Assembly (NCBI GenBank): GCA_964525635.1
Contig: CAZGJX010000038.1
Span: 1 to 23,109 of the forward strand
Source: an uncultured archaeon
Lineage (GTDB): Archaea > Asgardarchaeota > Lokiarchaeia > Sigyniarchaeales > SOKP01
Reading direction: 5' to 3'
Length of the DNA stretch: 23,109 nt
The notes under the pieces are model-generated. The model saw only the letters and a list, made by a program, of their open reading frames with translations. It was not told the origin of the DNA and did not search any database. The first letter of the stretch is position 1; every line of letters begins with the position of its first letter. Below, piece by piece: positions 1,751 through 14,693 of the stretch. The translations under genes and the position numbers were made by a program.

Positions 1751-2863
1751 ATGACGGAATTAGATATTAAGGATCTACATAAAAGACTTAATTTTTTAGA
1801 TAAAGAAAATAAACAACTTAAAAAGGAGTTAAATTCTTTTAAAGATCTCTTAAATAATTTAAAAAAAAGACCTTTATTAATTGGTTCAGTCGAACGCGTT
1901 TTAGAGGATAAACGGACAATAATTTCACATGCTCCGGGCAATAGGATTATACTCCCTCCAAATGAACTTATAAATCCACAAGCAGGAGATCAAGTTACAC
2001 TTCATCCTCAAAGTTATCAAATATTAGAAATACTTTCAAGGAAGATTCGTGGTCATGTAGCCAGTATGGAGTTGATAGAATCCCCTCAAGATACTTTTCA
2101 AGATATTGGAGGACTAGATGCCCAAATTGAAGCTATTCGAGAGGTAATAGAATTACCTTTACTTCATCCAGAATTATTTGAACAAATAGGTATCGATCCA
2201 CCCAGTGGTGCCTTATTATCAGGGCCTCCTGGGACGGGAAAAACATTATTAGCAAAAGCAATTGCAAATTCAACTAATGCAAGATTTATTCATTTGGTCG
2301 GTTCTGACCTTGTTCAAAAATTCATTGGGGAAGGATCAAGAATGGTAAGAGAAGTTTTTACTTTAGCAAAGGAAAATATACCTGCAATCATATTTATTGA
2401 TGAAATTGATGCAATAGCAATAAAACGTACAAGTGAAGTATATAAGGGAGATAGAGAAGTCCAAAGAACATTTATGCAATTATTATCTGAATTAGATGGA
2501 TTTGCTAACACGGAAGGTATTATGTTCTTGGCTGCAACAAATAGAGTTGATGTTCTTGATCCCGCAATTTTACGTCCTGGTCGATTTGATCGTATTATTA
2601 AATTTACCTTACCAAATGAAAAGGCTCGCCTTATGATTTTAAAGATTCATTCCAGAAAAATGAACTTAGATAGTATAGACTTTAAGGAGCTTGCAAAGAA
2701 GACAGAAGGTTTTAGTGGTGCCCATATTAAAGCATTAGTAACAGAAGCAGGGATAAAAGCACTCCGAAAAAGACAAACACAAATATCTCAACATAATTTT
2801 AATGACGCTTTAGCAGAGATTGTAGATAAAGAACATAGTGTTAAGGATTATATTTACACATAA
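1751..2863 (+). CDS. pan: Proteasome-activating nucleotidase (PAN/Rpt-type AAA+ ATPase)
   Basis: N-terminal coiled coil, then OB-like domain (PLLIGSV...), DIGGL, Walker A GPPGTGKT, pore loop KFIGEG, Walker [35 protein letters not shown]-terminal HbYX tail (IYT). Confidence 0.92.
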
Positions 2864-2960
2864 TTTAAGTCAAACCATTACATAGTATATCTTTTAATTT
2901 TCTACCAATTCCCAATGGATATTAATTATTTTAAGTTAATATTATCAAGGTTTTTTAGAA

Positions 2961-3524
2961 TCAATCTTCTAAAATATAATCCGAAATAAATAATTCCATT
3001 AAAACTTCATCATGATATTCTGATTCAATATAAAATTGTTTTTTTCTTACACCAATAACTTTGAATCCAATCTTTTTATAAAGGTTTAGAGCTCTTTCAT
3101 TTGTAGAAAAGCAACTTAATATTAGTTTATCTTTATTATTTAATTTTTTAGATTCTCTAATCGCAGCACCGATTAAATTATAACCAATCCCCATGTCTCT
3201 ATATTTTTTATTTATGATAATTCCCAAATGTCCAACATGGATCGCAGCGTCCCATTCAACATTAGTTATTTCACATTGTCCTACAATATTAGATGGGTAT
3301 TTTAAATCTAAATTATCTGCAACGATACAAATCTCATTTGCTTTCTTAAGATTATCATACCAAGACTGTTTTTCAAATTGTGAGGTAACAGGGAAGAGAA
3401 CAGGAAGATATATTCCTTCCTCAACAACTTCATTAAAATTCTTCCAAATTCCATTTACATCAGATCTCTTAACATGCCTTATAATAATCTTTTCCCCATT
3501 CTCAAGTTCGAAAAGTTCTTCCAT
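2961..3524 (-). CDS. GNAT family N-acetyltransferase
   Basis: Acetyl-CoA-binding motif A (LGIIINKKYRDMGIG) and motif B (N.RALNLYKKIGF..G), followed by D.VLM. Confidence 0.88.
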   Translation of the reverse strand: MEELFELENGEKIIIRHVKRSDVNGIWKNFNEVVEEGIYLPVLFPVTSQFEKQSWYDNLKKANEICIVADNLDLKYPSNIVGQCEITNVEWDAAIHVGHLGIIINKKYRDMGIGYNLIGAAIRESKKLNNKDKLILSCFSTNERALNLYKKIGFKVIGVRKKQFYIESEYHDEVLMELFISDYILED

Positions 3525-3568
3525 TACTTTATATAAGTTTTTATAATTAAATTGTTTATTGCAATAAT

Positions 3569-4000
3569 ATGGATAAGGATGAAAAGAAGGATGAGATCAG
3601 ATCCTATTTTGAAGAAGCTGCAAAAAAGAAAGAAAAAAAAGTAGCAAAAGAACTAGTGGAATTAACTCATGTTGAAATAAAGAAACAAGAAATAGGTCAA
3701 GATACTATTAATCTAGCAAAAACTTTAAAAGATCAAATTATAACTCATGATAGTTTTGAAAAACTGAGTAATGATGAAATGACAATTATAGAATCTATTC
3801 AAAATAAACGAATGTTTTTAAATAGGATTGCCATAATTGCAAATCAAAGTAGAATTCCAATGGGGAATGAACCTTATAAAAAAGCAGAACTAGAGGAGAT
3901 ATTAGGAAATCTAATTGCAAAGGGTTATGTTGATTCCGAAATCGTAGAGGATAATAGAGTATACTATCTCACTGAAAGAGGAAGATATAGAATACAATAA
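3569..4000 (+). CDS. Hypothetical protein with C-terminal winged-helix (MarR/PadR-like) domain
   Basis: C-terminal LEEILGNLIAKGYV...RVYYLTERG is the typical wHTH recognition helix plus wing; the N-terminus is charged and probably helical. Confidence 0.6.
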   Translation: MDKDEKKDEIRSYFEEAAKKKEKKVAKELVELTHVEIKKQEIGQDTINLAKTLKDQIITHDSFEKLSNDEMTIIESIQNKRMFLNRIAIIANQSRIPMGNEPYKKAELEEILGNLIAKGYVDSEIVEDNRVYYLTERGRYRIQ

Positions 4001-4053
4001 AACATTCTGAAGTTTTAGAAAAGTCAGATAATATAAAAATAAAAAAGAGCGAA

Positions 4054-4356
4054 TTAATCCTTTTTTAAAATGAGATTATTGATAGGAATATCTTGAAATT
4101 CTTCATTTGGCATTTCTCTTCTTATAGTTAATGGAAGAATTTTAGACTTAAGTTCTAATTGGGCAATTCTTATTGGATCTATCATAGTTTTTGGCTTGTC
4201 GACTAGAATAGGTGCCCCAAAACTAATTTGAAGCGCTCGAGCGCCAACAATTCTTGCTTTTTCGTATCTTGTTAAGAATATAGGCCCAATCTTTACATAT
4301 TCTCTAACTTCTTTATATTGTTTTCTTAATTCACGAGATTCTAAAAAACTGGACAC
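4054..4356 (-). CDS. rpoK: DNA-directed RNA polymerase subunit Rpo6/K (RPB6 homolog)
   Basis: [30 protein letters not shown]...LPLTIRR. GTG start preceded by AGGT. Confidence 0.96.
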
Positions 4357-9660: not shown

Positions 9661-10138
9661 AAAAAGCTATGCTTATTTTAACAAATTAGTAACATTCTGC
9701 TTAATTACAGGAATTCTAATAGTTTCTGGATTTATTATTTATTTAGTGATTCAGCCAGAGCCTCCATATCAAACTTTTACTATTCTTAATGAAGATCAGA
9801 AAATGGAAAATTATCCGACAAATGCAACAAGAGGGGAGCCAATCTATTTTTATGTTGGTGTTGGTAATTATTTAGAAAGGGATTTATCTTTTAGAGTAAA
9901 AATCTTAAAGGGAAATTCTTCTACTATTCTAAATGAAACAGGTTCCTATAATGCAAATTGGACTTTTACAACCCCAAATACCACTATATATAATAATGCT
10001 GAATGGATTTCTCCACAATTAAATATATCCTTTTATGCGATTGGTGAGAGGATTTTAATAGCTGAACTTTATGAAATCAAACCAATAGGATATAAATTCC
10101 TAGATATCTTATGGCTTCGAATAAACGTCACAAATTAG
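9635..10138 (+). CDS. Membrane-anchored protein, DUF1616-like
   Basis: One N-terminal TM helix, then TF.ILN..K.ENYPT and a beta-rich domain with many N-x-S/T sequons. Overlaps the upstream gene by 26 nt and the convergent pmbA stop by 4 nt. Confidence 0.65.
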   Translation: MNQTKQDIKKSYAYFNKLVTFCLITGILIVSGFIIYLVIQPEPPYQTFTILNEDQKMENYPTNATRGEPIYFYVGVGNYLERDLSFRVKILKGNSSTILNETGSYNANWTFTTPNTTIYNNAEWISPQLNISFYAIGERILIAELYEIKPIGYKFLDILWLRINVTN

Positions 10139-11511
10139 TTCGCATTTCCTATTATTTGAACATTATCAATTTTTACATATGGTGCTTGATATGGACCATA
10201 TATTTTATATTCCTTTGAAATTTGACTAATATTTTGAAATAAATCCATTAGATTAATTCCAAACATAGTTTTATTTAACGAATGCTTAATTTCACCATTT
10301 TCAATTAAATTACCTTGCAATATTAATCCTGAAAAATCGCCTGTAGAGATATTTGCTGAATCTCCCGAATACTCAAAAAGAATTCCTTGTTTTATATCAT
10401 TAATTAATTCTTCCTTAGAAATTGTTCCTGGTTTTAGATTAAAATTTGTTGCATCTATTGAGGGTAATGAACTATATGATGATCGCATAGCATTTCCTGT
10501 GCTTTCAATTCCTTCTTTAGCTGCGGTATAACTATTATGGAGCAAACCTTGTTCAAGAAATTTACCCTTTTCAATGATCTTTTTATTTTTACATGGTGTT
10601 CCCTCATCATCAAATATAGAAGAACCAGTACCTCCTTCAATTAAAGCATTATCTTCGATATTAAGTAGTTCTGACCCAATTTGATTTCCTTTTTTCTCAA
10701 CAAGAAAACTTCTCTTATATTGGAAGGCTTCAGCATTAATTGCAGAAATTAAGGGTTGTAAAATTAGATTAATTGTACCTGTAGGCGTTAAGACCAAAGG
10801 AATCTTCATATTATTAACACCTTTTCTGTTTAAATGTCGTTTTGCATTTTTCAAAGCATTTATGGCAATTTTTTGAGCATTTAAATCTTTGATATTTCTT
10901 ACAGATTGCCAATCAAATCCAAATGATGTTTTCTTGGTTATTTTATCTTTAACTATTATATTTGATGATATTGAACATATTGTATTTTTACTTGAAACCT
11001 CTAAACCATTTGAATTTATGATATATATCTCAGAATAGTTAGATTTGAAATTTGCTGATTGAGAAATAGCTAGCTCATCTTCTTCACAAACTTTAATCAA
11101 ATCTTCTACATATTGAGAAGAATCCTCAACTTCAATTTGTTCAATATTTTTATCATATAATCCTCTGATTGAAGGATAATTTTTAGGTTTTTTTGGAAGG
11201 TCTTTAAAATCAGGATCAGATGTACCAACTTTCATCATTTTTATAGCCGTGTTTACAATCTTATCAATAGTTTTTTTTTCAAATTTATTGGTAAAAGAAA
11301 AACCTAAAGAACCTCTATTATCTATTACTCTTACAGAGACTCCCATTTCAGTCCCCAATGTACTATTTTTGATTGAATTTTCTTCGATTTCTATATTAAT
11401 ATATTTATCTTTACTCAGATACACTTCCGAACATTTTACATTTGTTTCCCTTACTTTTATAATATTTGTTATATTTTTAACTAACTCAAATATATCTATT
11501 TCCTCACTCAT
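10135..11511 (-). CDS. pmbA: PmbA/TldE family protein (non-catalytic partner of TldD)
   Basis: G.SVRVI...G.LGFS, FDDEGTP, STGNA.R, N..TGDFSG, LIENGEI, P.VKI. No HExxxH motif. Confidence 0.9.
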   Translation of the reverse strand: MSEEIDIFELVKNITNIIKVRETNVKCSEVYLSKDKYINIEIEENSIKNSTLGTEMGVSVRVIDNRGSLGFSFTNKFEKKTIDKIVNTAIKMMKVGTSDPDFKDLPKKPKNYPSIRGLYDKNIEQIEVEDSSQYVEDLIKVCEEDELAISQSANFKSNYSEIYIINSNGLEVSSKNTICSISSNIIVKDKITKKTSFGFDWQSVRNIKDLNAQKIAINALKNAKRHLNRKGVNNMKIPLVLTPTGTINLILQPLISAINAEAFQYKRSFLVEKKGNQIGSELLNIEDNALIEGGTGSSIFDDEGTPCKNKKIIEKGKFLEQGLLHNSYTAAKEGIESTGNAMRSSYSSLPSIDATNFNLKPGTISKEELINDIKQGILFEYSGDSANISTGDFSGLILQGNLIENGEIKHSLNKTMFGINLMDLFQNISQISKEYKIYGPYQAPYVKIDNVQIIGNAN

Positions 11512-11622
11512 CAGAATTTAACTCTTATGTAGTACTTTATTTTTTTTTTTCTATTTTCACTTAATATAATATTTTATACTTCGGTTTTTTTTATAAAATT
11601 GGATTTAAATAATCATAACACT

Positions 11623-11664
11623 CTATCTCAATCCACCTACAGTTATATTCTTCACACGAATATA
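11623..11664 (-). repeat. Orphan copy of the tldD 3' end (YIRVKNITVGGLR*); imperfect direct repeat of 13248-13289
   Basis: Minus strand TAT ATT CGT GTG AAG AAT ATA ACT GTA GGT GGA TTG AGA TAG versus tldD TAT ATT CGT GTG AAA AAT ATA ATT GTT GGA GGA TTA AAC TGA. The exact 14-bp core ttcacacgaatata is at 11651-11664 and 13276-13289. Confidence 0.92.
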
Positions 11665-13289
11665 CATAAAATTAGATATTATTTAAAGATCACCAACTAG
11701 ATCTAATATAAAAATCAAAAATCTATCATTCCCTATGTATTTATTCTTATTAGAAATTTTAAATAAAATAAGAAATAATAAATATTATTCAAATTATGTA
11801 ATGAATTAATAAGTGATATATAGTGTTTTACTGGTTGGGAATATATCTATAATTAAAAATAAGATAGATTATTTCCCTTATTTATAGAAAAAAAGACCTC
11901 ATAATCATCACTCATTATCTTTATAGATAAAAAAATTGAAAATAAATCCAAAATTATCATTAAAATTATATTGAATTAAAGTGTTTAAGAATTACAGGTA
12001 AATATGTAAATCTTATGGAACTATCAAAAAAAGAAAGAATTTGGATAAATCCATCAGAAATTCATAATATATATTCGGAGTTAAAGAATATAGGTATTCC
12101 ATATAAAAGAATTCAAGAAAAAATTAATAATAAAGAATTAAAAGATACAACATTTCTTGATAGACTAGAAAAATTATTCAATAAAAGTAAGATAAATGGT
12201 AAAAGTAACATCAAATTTTCCTCTCGCTATAAATTAACAGAATTATTAGGAATAAAATTTGGACGTTTACTTTACCCCGAAAAAAAAAAGAAATCTTTTA
12301 TTAATAGAGATATTTTAAATAAACTAGAGTTCTTATTAGGAAAAAAAATTTTACATAAAGTTTTTATTGGGCAATATCAGAAAATAGAAAGAGATAATGA
12401 TGCAATTCTAGCTGAATTTATTGGAATTTGTCTTGGAGATGGAAATCTTTTAGCTGAAGATAAACATTATGGAGTAAGAATTATTTTAGATTTTAAACAT
12501 GATCCAAAATATGTAAAATATGTATCACAGATAATGAAATTAATCCTTAAAAGAGATCCTGCAATTCAAGCAGTGAGTGGTACTAAAGTTTTAAGTATAT
12601 GGGGTAATTGTATTCCTGATTTTTTAATTTCAAAAGGACTAATTCCCGGAGATAAAGTTAAAAACCAAATAGGTGTGCCAAAATGGATAAAAGATAATGA
12701 TTTATTTGCTATATCTTGTTTAAAGGGGCTTATTGATACAGATGGTAGCATACATATTCATAAAAAGAGTAAAGGGATAAATATTAAATTCTCAAGTGCT
12801 TCTTATCAACTTATTTCTGATTTTAAAGAAATATGTGGGATGATAAATGTTAAAACAGGAAATATAATTAATTCCTTAAGAGGAATATCTAAAAAATCTG
12901 GGAAAAAAAAAATAGATTATAATATATTAATTTCCTCCAAAAAAGCAGTTAATCGTTTTATTGAAATTATTAATCCACAGAAGTGGAAGTATAGAGCTAA
13001 TATATTAGGATTACAATTAATTGCTTTAAAAAACTATGAAAAATGGAAATTTATAAAAGATAAACTAAATATCTCCTATCCAGATGGAAAAACACACTGG
13101 AATTTAAAATATGAGAATTATTTGAAGGATCTTTGTATTTTATATGGTTATGATGTTAGTCATAATGCTATAGAAAATGCGATATTTAAGGCATTTGAAT
13201 ATAAAAAGAATAGAATTTAAATAATCAATATTATAAAAAATATCTGCTCAGTTTAATCCTCCAACAATTATATTTTTCACACGAATATA
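11651..13289. mobile_element. Putative LAGLIDADG-endonuclease insertion element in the tldD 3' end (1625 bp between repeat cores)
   Basis: Bounded by the duplicated tldD 3' end, splits the tldD-pmbA pair, and contains a single ORF (LAGLIDADG) on the opposite strand. Confidence 0.8.
12015..13220 (+). CDS. Free-standing two-motif LAGLIDADG (intein DOD-type) endonuclease
   Basis: Motif 1 LAEFIGICLGDG, motif 2 CLKGLIDTDGSI, and the G..PG.K.....VPKWI segment between them. No intein splicing termini: Met start, no terminal His-Asn. Confidence 0.9.
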   Translation: MELSKKERIWINPSEIHNIYSELKNIGIPYKRIQEKINNKELKDTTFLDRLEKLFNKSKINGKSNIKFSSRYKLTELLGIKFGRLLYPEKKKKSFINRDILNKLEFLLGKKILHKVFIGQYQKIERDNDAILAEFIGICLGDGNLLAEDKHYGVRIILDFKHDPKYVKYVSQIMKLILKRDPAIQAVSGTKVLSIWGNCIPDFLISKGLIPGDKVKNQIGVPKWIKDNDLFAISCLKGLIDTDGSIHIHKKSKGINIKFSSASYQLISDFKEICGMINVKTGNIINSLRGISKKSGKKKIDYNILISSKKAVNRFIEIINPQKWKYRANILGLQLIALKNYEKWKFIKDKLNISYPDGKTHWNLKYENYLKDLCILYGYDVSHNAIENAIFKAFEYKKNRI

Positions 13290-14693
13290 TGGTCCACCAT
13301 CACAAACTCTAACACTTTGACCTCCTTTTCCACAATTTCCATCCGAAAAACTGATTTCATTACCAATCGCATCAATATTATTAAGAACTTCTAAAGTCAT
13401 TCCTGAGAGAGAAACATCTCTCATTAATTCTTTTTTTTCTCCATTTTCGATCTTATAAGATAATCTAGCTTTAAATTGAAAATTTCCTGTTGTTGGATCA
13501 GTGTATCCATATTGAAAATCTTCGCATAAAATACCTTCTTTAGTGTCTTCAATCATTTCTTCTATAGTCCAGTCTTTTGGTTCTAAAATAGTGATTCCCA
13601 TGCGAACTTGTGGTTTGGTTATGTTTGAAGCGGCTCTCCCATGACCGTTTGGCTGAACATTCATCCTTGATGCGGTTTCTATACTATGAAGATAATTCTT
13701 AAAGATACCCTTATCTATAATCGTTGTCTTTTGAGAAGATACACCCTCATCATCTATTAAATAACTACCATATAGTTCATAAGGTAAATTAATTTTCTCT
13801 CCTTGACCGAGTCTTGGATCATCTATTATTGAAACATCTTCAATAGCAACTTTTTCTTCAATTTTATCTTCTAAAATACTTTCTTTATTTAATACTAAAT
13901 CTGCTTCACACGCATGTCCAAATGCCTCGTGAATAAAAGTCCCTGTTAGTTTTGGATCCATTATTAATGTAAAGGTTCCCCCAACAGGAGATTGCGCATC
14001 TAATAAATTAACTGCTTCTTTAGCAGATAAAGAACTTATTTCCTTTGCTTTTTCTGTTTCTGTAATCTCAAATCCTCCAAGACCTCCTATCGAATTGACA
14101 CCTCTTTGGATGATACCATTTTTTTGAGCATAAACAGAACTAAATAATCTTAGTAGAGATAATTTTTGAGATATTTGGGATCCAAAAGAATTAATAAAAA
14201 TATTACTCCCTATCCCATCAAAATATAAGGTTTGGGTATTTTTTATGCTTGAACTAAAATTATTGGCAATTTTCTCATGTTCTTTAACAAGATTTATTTT
14301 TTCGGTTATGTCTATATTTTCTAATTGTTTTTTACTCTTTAATTTAAAATCTCTATTAATGATTTCAGTTTCTTTTATTTTAAATTTATATTTACATAAA
14401 GATTCTGATAATTGAGCTAATTTAACAGCCTTTTGAAAGTTTTTTTCAAGAGAATGTCTTGATAAATCCTCTATAACGACAAATCCCCACCCACCATTTA
14501 AAAAAGTTCTGATACTACATTTATTTGTCTCATAGGAAGAGATTTCTTTACTTTTTTTATCTGTAAATTCAATTGAAGTACCTATACTAGTCCCAGCTCT
14601 AATATCCCAATATTCTATCTTATTATTTGAAAGATTATTTAGTTTTTTTATTAATTTCTCATCAAATATTTTTAATTCTTCTATTAATTCCAT
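13248..14693 (-). CDS. tldD: TldD metalloprotease
   Basis: Metal-binding HEAFGH.CEAD, DDEGV, NGHGRA, P.VRM..T, and C-terminal CGKGGQSVRV.DGGP.IRV. Confidence 0.94.
   Translation of the reverse strand: MELIEELKIFDEKLIKKLNNLSNNKIEYWDIRAGTSIGTSIEFTDKKSKEISSYETNKCSIRTFLNGGWGFVVIEDLSRHSLEKNFQKAVKLAQLSESLCKYKFKIKETEIINRDFKLKSKKQLENIDITEKINLVKEHEKIANNFSSSIKNTQTLYFDGIGSNIFINSFGSQISQKLSLLRLFSSVYAQKNGIIQRGVNSIGGLGGFEITETEKAKEISSLSAKEAVNLLDAQSPVGGTFTLIMDPKLTGTFIHEAFGHACEADLVLNKESILEDKIEEKVAIEDVSIIDDPRLGQGEKINLPYELYGSYLIDDEGVSSQKTTIIDKGIFKNYLHSIETASRMNVQPNGHGRAASNITKPQVRMGITILEPKDWTIEEMIEDTKEGILCEDFQYGYTDPTTGNFQFKARLSYKIENGEKKELMRDVSLSGMTLEVLNNIDAIGNEISFSDGNCGKGGQSVRVCDGGPYIRVKNIIVGGLN

Follow-up and report, generated by a model that had tools for sequence, protein, structure and literature searches.

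A candidate splicing-free homing cassette at the 3' end of tldD in a Lokiarchaeia chromosome

Introduction

It is usually assumed that a homing endonuclease can invade essential coding sequence only with the help of an intron or intein, and that it otherwise sits between genes. To our knowledge, rescue of the host gene by a carried replacement gene end is known only from fungal mitochondria. This article describes a stretch of 23,109 nucleotides from an uncultured archaeon of the Lokiarchaeia (assembly GCA_964525635.1, contig CAZGJX010000038.1; hereafter the window, meaning the whole stretch analysed), in which a LAGLIDADG endonuclease gene lies between tldD and pmbA and is bracketed by two copies of the tldD 3' end. 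The segment at about 11665-13289 is proposed to be a splicing-free homing cassette composed of a recoded tldD 3' end, a convergent LAGLIDADG gene and the upstream region of that gene, with an estimated probability of roughly 0.7.

The closest described systems are the mORF "gene hybrids" of fungal mitochondria, which comprise an inserted foreign C-terminal piece, an endonuclease open reading frame (ORF) and a displaced native C*-terminal (PMC3630166). The first description is credited there to atp6 of Allomyces macrogynus (PMC3630166, ref. 48), and later cases include atp6, atp9, cox2 and nad3 of Glomus (PMC3630166). The window locus would share with these hybrids the order of host gene body, in-frame foreign C-terminal piece, endonuclease ORF and displaced native C*-terminal, and it likewise contains neither intron nor intein. 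The native piece is closer to relatives in the hybrids, which also holds clearly for a second archaeal locus described below (L045); in the window, amino-acid states point to the orphan as the native piece and four synonymous sites to the in-frame tail. Unlike the hybrids, the window locus lies in a cellular archaeal chromosome and not in an organelle, its replaced pieces are very short (14-15 codons), and a tightly coupled gene pair is split. Whereas an mORF is in phase with its host gene, the endonuclease gene in the window is antisense and convergent and has its own upstream region.

Other systems share single aspects of this arrangement. Free-standing endonucleases of T4-like phages (Seg, Mob) engage in "intronless homing", and collaborative homing has been described for F-CphI with a psbA intron (PMC6083498). 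The Seg and Mob genes resemble the window gene in lying free-standing between conserved genes, in their presumed spread by double-strand-break repair with co-conversion, and in immunity that would come from sequence differences near the target. They differ in belonging to GIY-YIG, HNH and EndoVII-like families and in having neither a duplicated gene end nor an orphan. The archaeal enzymes I-DmoI, I-Tsp061I, PI-PfuI and the TliVMA intein have the same monomeric two-domain LAGLIDADG fold and are the best structural matches; the window protein differs from them by the absence of an intron and of a Hint splicing domain and by extra helical domains at its N- and C-termini, and its host gene would be rescued at the DNA level instead of by RNA or protein splicing. 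Islands in tRNA genes, inserted by tyrosine integrases, also supply a replacement gene end and leave a displaced copy, but the window insert has no integrase, is only 1.7 kilobases (kb) long, and is flanked by diverged and recoded repeats and not by identical att sites. According to the original prediction, made from the sequence of the window, a splicing-free cut-and-rescue element in an Asgard chromosome was not known to be described. A full-text literature search agreed in finding no such element in archaea, within a limited library that does not prove absence.

Organization of the tldD-pmbA Locus

The tldD gene occupies positions 14693-13248 on the minus strand and encodes 481 amino acids ending in GGPYIRVKNIIVGGLN; all three PmbA/TldD Pfam domains are present and the gene is intact. 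Its last 14 codons plus stop (13248-13289, minus strand) form the in-frame tail, YIRVKNIIVGGLN, which ends in asparagine before the stop (N-stop). A linker of 27 base pairs (bp; 13221-13247) separates the convergent stop codons of tldD and the endonuclease gene (12015-13220, plus strand), which encodes a free-standing, monomeric double-motif LAGLIDADG protein of 401 amino acids. Upstream of the endonuclease gene is an AT-rich non-coding stretch of 350 bp (11665-12014) that contains no ORF and is unique in the genome by own-genome search; it is presumed to hold the promoter of the endonuclease gene and to be the right arm of the cassette. This stretch ends in an ATG immediately before the orphan tldD tail, YIRVKNITVGGLR (11623-11664, minus strand), which comprises 14 codons plus stop outside any gene. 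A spacer of 111 bp (11512-11622) then leads to pmbA (10135-11511, minus strand), an intact gene of 458 codons that in relatives is tightly coupled to the tldD stop. Within the spacer, a 19-bp block (11597-11615) recurs at 13209-13227, colinear with the repeated tails. In all, 1736 bp separate the tldD stop from the pmbA start, and each coordinate and count of the layout that had been predicted proved exact.

The genome is a 245-contig metagenome bin and several short contigs stop within the AT-rich 350-bp stretch, so that a chimeric assembly of two strains had to be considered; it had been named beforehand as a finding that would overturn the interpretation. The identical 401-amino-acid protein is on record in seven contigs from several assemblies, four of which were fetched. 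An 18.9-kb Logan contig from a separate assembly of a salt-marsh run is identical across pmbA, the orphan, the endonuclease gene and tldD, although it may stem from the same sample as the window. Contigs of three further salt-marsh runs bridge 11290-12578, 11417-11686, 11726-13717 and 13164-13767 with 0 differences. All junctions are thus bridged by contigs of other assemblies or runs, and a chimera is exceedingly improbable. The salt-marsh runs look like one sampling campaign; their contigs exclude a chimera but do not represent independent populations.

The Endonuclease

The 401-amino-acid ORF matches Pfam LAGLIDADG_3 (E=3.8e-7), and a PDB sequence search with it gave no match. An AlphaFold2 model built with 30 homologues reached a predicted local distance difference test score (pLDDT) of 92 and a predicted template modelling score (pTM) of 0.88. 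It places the endonuclease core at about residues 130-320, with helical extensions on the N- and C-terminal sides. Foldseek matched the model to the endonuclease domains of PI-PfuI and the TliVMA intein, with a root-mean-square deviation of 2.2-2.3 Å over about 195 columns, and to I-DmoI and I-Tsp061I with template modelling scores (on target) of about 0.7 and 0.65; a WhiA chain was also present among the fold matches. The predicted structure can be assigned with confidence to the monomeric two-domain LAGLIDADG fold, with two alpha-beta-beta-alpha-beta-beta-alpha domains that form a DNA-binding saddle. Among the 30 homologues, the putative catalytic residue D142 (LGDGN) is at least 90% conserved and D243 (LIDTDGS) is invariant.

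The direct repeats that flank the insert could also be the mark of an integrase-type island, a transposon with target-site duplication, a group I, group II or bulge-helix-bulge intron, or an intein. The original prediction had reported no integrase, transposase, intein motif or intron, and the ORF list, Pfam and Rfam all came out empty in the same way. Neither an integrase nor a transposase ORF is present in the 1.7-kb insert (ORF list, Pfam), terminal inverted repeats are absent, and the direct repeats are diverged, coding and at least 35 bp in length. No Rfam family was matched in 11300-13600 at E<=1, and Pfam detected a Hint domain neither in the endonuclease nor in any of ten long homologues. 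In addition, the tldD reading frame is closed by a stop codon of its own ahead of the endonuclease gene, and the latter is encoded on the opposite strand. An origin as any of these elements is therefore very improbable.

Seven order-level homologues (L036, L039, L042, L044, L046, L051 and L058) carry their LAGLIDADG domains in open frames of 640-970 or more amino acids. These frames have large uncharacterised extensions without a Hint or host-protein domain by Pfam and are not obvious inteins. An intein reading of the homologues in long open frames was rejected, since Pfam shows LAGLIDADG domains only.

Empty Sites in Relatives

The best tldD locus was fetched from 29 relatives, comprising three of the same genus, 21 of the same family and five from other families of the order. 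In 29 of 29, pmbA directly follows tldD without an endonuclease homologue in between, which bears out the adjacency that had been expected of empty loci, and the 1736-bp insert of the window is therefore the derived state. The distance from the tldD stop to the pmbA start is 0-3 bp, or the genes overlap, in the 23 same-family loci that were read. Presence and absence among relatives at one site, as expected of a homing element, is thus observed across these 29 relatives, the three congeners included.

The three congeners, whose TldD proteins are 79-81% identical to that of the window, share the ending VGGLR-stop, with TAA or TGA, then aaa and the ATG of pmbA, which is an orphan-type ending. 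The empty allele had been predicted to join this ending to pmbA through the 111-bp spacer. The first part is what the congeners have; the spacer is found in no relative. DNA identity of tldD to the congeners is flat (0.72-0.89) up to the 3' end. This speaks against a long foreign co-conversion tract in tldD, a possibility that was considered and rejected, and any foreign tract would be confined to the tail.

Contigs were also searched for the same strain in another state. Clusters of TldD, PmbA and P0002 (the nearest homologue of the endonuclease, described below) have a single member each, and contigs with the exact PmbA all carry the endonuclease gene. One contig of run X4 (depth 8) joins 11407 to 13408, skipping 2000 bases, with unknown letters between and 85% likeness. 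It probably comes from a co-occurring related species with an empty tldD-pmbA site and was not used as evidence.

The Two tldD Tails

The two tails had been described as 32/37 identical with an exact core of 14 bp and four synonymous changes among five differences, and recomputation gave the same values. As a direct repeat (11630-11664 and 13255-13289) they are 89% identical and 1625 bp apart, and they constitute the strongest flank repeat around the endonuclease ORF (z=7.4 against shuffles). Divergence is graded along the tail: 20/21 positions agree over the first 21 nucleotides, compared with 13/21 over the final 21. Both tails of the window have the codons GTG and AAT, which are missing from the congeners.

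Amino-acid states separate the two copies. The orphan shares with the congeners its ending in arginine before the stop (R-stop) and a threonine (T), the latter with two of the three, whereas the N-stop of the in-frame tail is common to the tldD tail beside P0002 and to other genera, and is not found in the congeners. The in-frame tail, at least in its 3' half, is proposed to be a recoded replacement end borne by the cassette. The prediction that it is foreign and recoded is thus upheld in part: these amino-acid states favour it, and nucleotides alone cannot assign the native tail. Changes between the tails were counted by the Nei-Gojobori scheme, in which 22% synonymous changes are expected by chance. 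The window pair has four synonymous and three non-synonymous changes (P=0.06 alone), the pair at L045 has five and one, and pooling of both gives nine and four (binomial P=4e-4).

The Same Design at an AAA-ATPase Gene

A screen for direct repeats on either side of family members turned up a second host gene with the same arrangement. In locus L045, from a genome of another genus (G059), an AAA-ATPase gene ends in EKDYEVVLDKIRFPT and stop, and a gene for a 588-amino-acid endonuclease converges on it 9 bp away; an orphan that ends in EKDYEVVLDKIKFPT and stop lies about 180 bp upstream of the endonuclease start. Four distinct occupied alleles are known at this site from six contigs: L045, L127/L128 (P0008), L130 (P0009) and L131/L132 (P0018), the last three from other metagenomes and genome bins. 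The endonucleases at the AAA site are 62-85% identical among members and form a sister lineage to the tldD-site one. The orphans are intact, native-type and 15 codons long, at exactly 179 bp upstream of the endonuclease start in L127, L130 and L131. The in-frame tails of L127/L128, L130 and L131/L132 carry unusual residues.

Another 24 congeners of G059 were fetched, none of which has an endonuclease gene at the AAA site. Their tails end in KFPT-stop, except for L104 (LRFPT-stop). The nearest endonuclease-free congener, L100 (93% protein identity), equals the L045 orphan over eight consecutive codons and is similar downstream, while the in-frame tail of L045 differs by five synonymous changes and one conservative one. 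By this comparison the L045 orphan is clearly the native tail and the in-frame tail the imported one. In L131 (positions 2501-4261; GCA_036478875.1, JAZGEW010000017.1), the endonuclease gene is split into ORFs of 323 and 172 amino acids that are 270 bp apart, and the replacement tail and orphan are intact. From its sequence, L131 is a decaying cassette, in the decay stage of the homing cycle. It had been asked of the prediction that homologous endonucleases be flanked by duplicated gene ends; the four occupied alleles of the AAA-ATPase gene and the nearest homologue, which abuts a tldD tail, provide such cases.

The Endonuclease Family and Its Insertion Sites

Homologues were searched for in 5.8 billion proteins. 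The window endonuclease (P0001) has one close homologue only, P0002, which is 48% identical over its full length and was recovered from another metagenome, run SRR8436473. Within the family, each of the two proteins is the best hit of the other. The contig of P0002 (L067) is 1440 bp long and covers the tldD-tail side. It ends in 36 codons of a tldD tail, terminating in GGPYIRVDDVTVGGLN and stop, which converges on the P0002 stop at a distance of 9 bp. The same stop-to-stop linker of 9 bp occurs in L045, L127 and L131, compared with 27 bp in the window. Further tldD-linked endonucleases could not be confirmed in metagenome contigs, and genome contigs yielded distant homologues only. A query with P0002 against 135 genomes of the same family gave no close relative besides the window. 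It is thus observed for the tldD site (P0001 and P0002) and for the AAA site that diverged endonuclease lineages keep one insertion site. The endonuclease family as a whole has a patchy distribution, as expected of a mobile gene: at E<=1e-5, members occur in 48 of 151 genomes of the order, every one of which belongs to the same taxonomic family as the window, and 0 of 3 congeners has a member.

Additional family members were seen in other settings. The genome of the window contains a third, intact family copy of 291 amino acids (L002:1390-2265; G000:C136) between caspase-like and RNase H-like genes, at which no flank duplication was detectable. It also contains a frameshifted copy (L003:1287-3079; G000:C146), with ORFs of 152 and 128 amino acids, within a tRNA cluster, where it lies between tRNA-Ser(gct) and tRNA-Ser(tga), followed by three tRNA-Leu genes. 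This arrangement recalls SegB, which sits in the tRNA cluster of T4.

Other flank repeats were found at several loci. In L047:1180-2345 (G044:C67), the gene for a 237-amino-acid family endonuclease (minus strand, 1390-2103) lies between GC-rich, non-coding direct repeats of 160-190 bp. On the minus strand, the repeat resembles the T-arm and acceptor end of a tRNA with long insertions, and 29 additional nucleotides, like a mini-intron, lie within the T-loop of the copy downstream of the endonuclease gene; ARAGORN and Rfam gave no match for the repeat. In L068:3591-5357 (JAHLWS010000078.1) and L124:580-1809, the first 100-117 residues or so of the endonuclease ORF share about 65-70% identity with the beginning of the gene that comes next downstream (MREY...), including the ribosome-binding-site region, and L124 is a fused form without the second copy. 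This could be either a 5'-end version of the replacement or a shared domain. L050 (G013:C20) has a direct repeat of about 100 bp (911-1059 and 3348-3487; a 72-bp core about 95% identical, 2.4 kb apart) that brackets an endonuclease gene split into ORFs of 331 and 243 amino acids; by sequence, it seems to be upstream promoter-like DNA and not a gene end.

Proposed Mechanism

Directly observed are the anatomy of the locus, the empty alleles in relatives, endonuclease lineages that are specific to their sites, and the recurrence of the design at a second gene. Cleavage, target position, immunity and current activity are inferred. The geometry common to both sites comprises an identical core of 14-17 nucleotides, a recoded part of about 21-25 nucleotides, a precise right-hand boundary and a native-type orphan, and it fits double-strand-break repair. 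The enzyme would cut the conserved tldD tail of a cassette-free allele. Repair from a cassette-bearing allele would then use the tldD body as the left homology arm, and the remaining tail with the downstream DNA as the right arm, pairing with the orphan side of the donor. Synthesis would copy the recoded end of the tail together with the endonuclease gene and the region upstream of that gene. TldD would stay full length without an intron or intein, and the recipient's own tail would be stranded downstream as the orphan. The orphan would therefore be largely the recipient's own tail, renewed at each invasion, which would explain why orphans look native and are intact.

Neither copy would rebuild the whole target: the recoded 3' half sets the in-frame copy apart, and the orphan is without the upstream GGTGGACCA. 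For both copies to escape cleavage, the target would have to span the left boundary of the duplication, which is lost in the orphan, and reach into the recoded part, which is changed in the in-frame copy. Such an extended footprint could be provided by the extra N- and C-terminal domains. As a side effect, the otherwise universal coupling of tldD and pmbA is broken. The spacer may supply a promoter for the uncoupled pmbA and so compensate for the split.

Weighing the Alternatives

Several observations weigh against a homing cassette. Among about 30 free-standing family loci, a clear duplicated protein-gene 3' end is present in two (the window and L045), and four others have other flank repeats: L068 (5' end), L047 (tRNA-like), L050 and L056. 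Reads had been suggested as a source of empty-site or circular junctions; in the Logan contigs, including those of the four salt-marsh runs, at 4-9x depth, no conspecific empty allele and no circular or excised form was seen. The tail is complete in the orphan from the tyrosine on, and immunity of the orphan would require a target that reaches beyond the duplication on its upstream side. The 19-bp block after both stop codons (17/19 identical, a level reached in 0 of 300 shuffles), whose copy at 13209-13227 overlaps the endonuclease stop codon, suggests a duplication longer or older than the model needs.

The assignment of native and foreign tails adds to these points. At the four synonymous sites, it is the in-frame tail and not the orphan that matches the congeners. 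The matching codons are the preferred A/T-ending ones, so that codon bias could account for the match, and it carries little weight because third positions are, in addition, largely randomised between species. Nucleotide comparison gives no verdict on which tail of the window is native; the assignment rests on two amino-acid states, R-stop and T, and these favour the orphan.

The last of the opposing observations is the 111-bp spacer, which simple insertion into a congener-type empty site does not predict. Its first 26 bp repeat the sequence after the in-frame tail, including the endonuclease stop codon, and its other 85 bp resemble neither the endonuclease gene nor the region upstream of that gene. 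Own-genome searches with both spacers gave short AT-rich chance matches only. The spacer can be read in two ways. One is that it originated in the window lineage, either earlier or later than the insertion, perhaps through selection for a pmbA promoter after the split of the operon. The other involves two successive invasions: the orphan and the first 26 bp of the spacer would be the left end of an older cassette, whose endonuclease gene was deleted together with the true native tail to leave the 111-bp scar, and the present cassette would have invaded the scarred allele. The mechanism would be the one set out above; the history would differ, and the orphan would not be native. Such a history would account for the absence of the 111 bp from every relative, for the way in which the 19-bp block after the orphan stop mirrors the last codons and stop of the present endonuclease gene, and for the less-preferred codons of the orphan (AAG, GTA, GGT, TTG) at sites where the in-frame tail matches the congeners. 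Cycles of decay and re-invasion are also established for homing endonucleases, and L131 holds a decaying copy. The dissimilar 85 bp of the spacer do not fit this history, nor do the congener-type R-stop and T of the orphan, and the orphans at the AAA site are plainly native. Two invasions are considered unlikely.

An old, one-off illegitimate insertion is a different kind of explanation. It would have duplicated about 70-80 bp in situ, after which the tails diverged in place without ongoing homing, and the endonuclease would be inactive or domesticated, for example as a WhiA-like DNA-binding protein. The two tails are indeed each other's closest relatives, sharing the GTG and AAT that congeners lack, and the synonymous share of 4/7 in the window would fit one constrained and one neutral copy; the WhiA chain among the fold matches and the lack of a conspecific empty allele point in the same direction. 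A single event, however, does not account for the repetition of the geometry at the AAA gene, with about 179 bp from orphan to start and native-type orphans in four alleles, or for the 48%-identical endonuclease at the same tldD position in another lineage. The conservation of both catalytic aspartates and the patchy distribution of the family also speak against it. When the changes are polarised on the congeners, moreover, the four synonymous ones fall on the orphan lineage, which is unlikely for a neutral copy. A one-off insertion is thus quite improbable, and a homing cassette is preferred as the interpretation of the locus.

Significance

On balance, and by somewhat better than even odds, the loci described here suggest that a Lokiarchaeia family of free-standing LAGLIDADG cassettes homes into the last 14-15 codons of chromosomal protein genes, at least tldD and an AAA ATPase gene, and rescues the gene at the DNA level through a recoded replacement end in place of an intron or intein, which would be the first such case outside organelles. 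Since the target sequences can be deduced from empty alleles, the enzymes lend themselves to direct testing and are potentially useful meganucleases. A recurrent, site-specific strategy of this type in Asgard chromosomes would add to the range of selfish elements known from the closest prokaryotic relatives of eukaryotes. It would also give a concrete origin for gene termini acquired by horizontal transfer, for orphan gene fragments and for broken operons. If the interpretation is true, a cut-and-rescue family would account for such features of Asgard genomes as orphan gene ends, mosaic gene termini and split operons.

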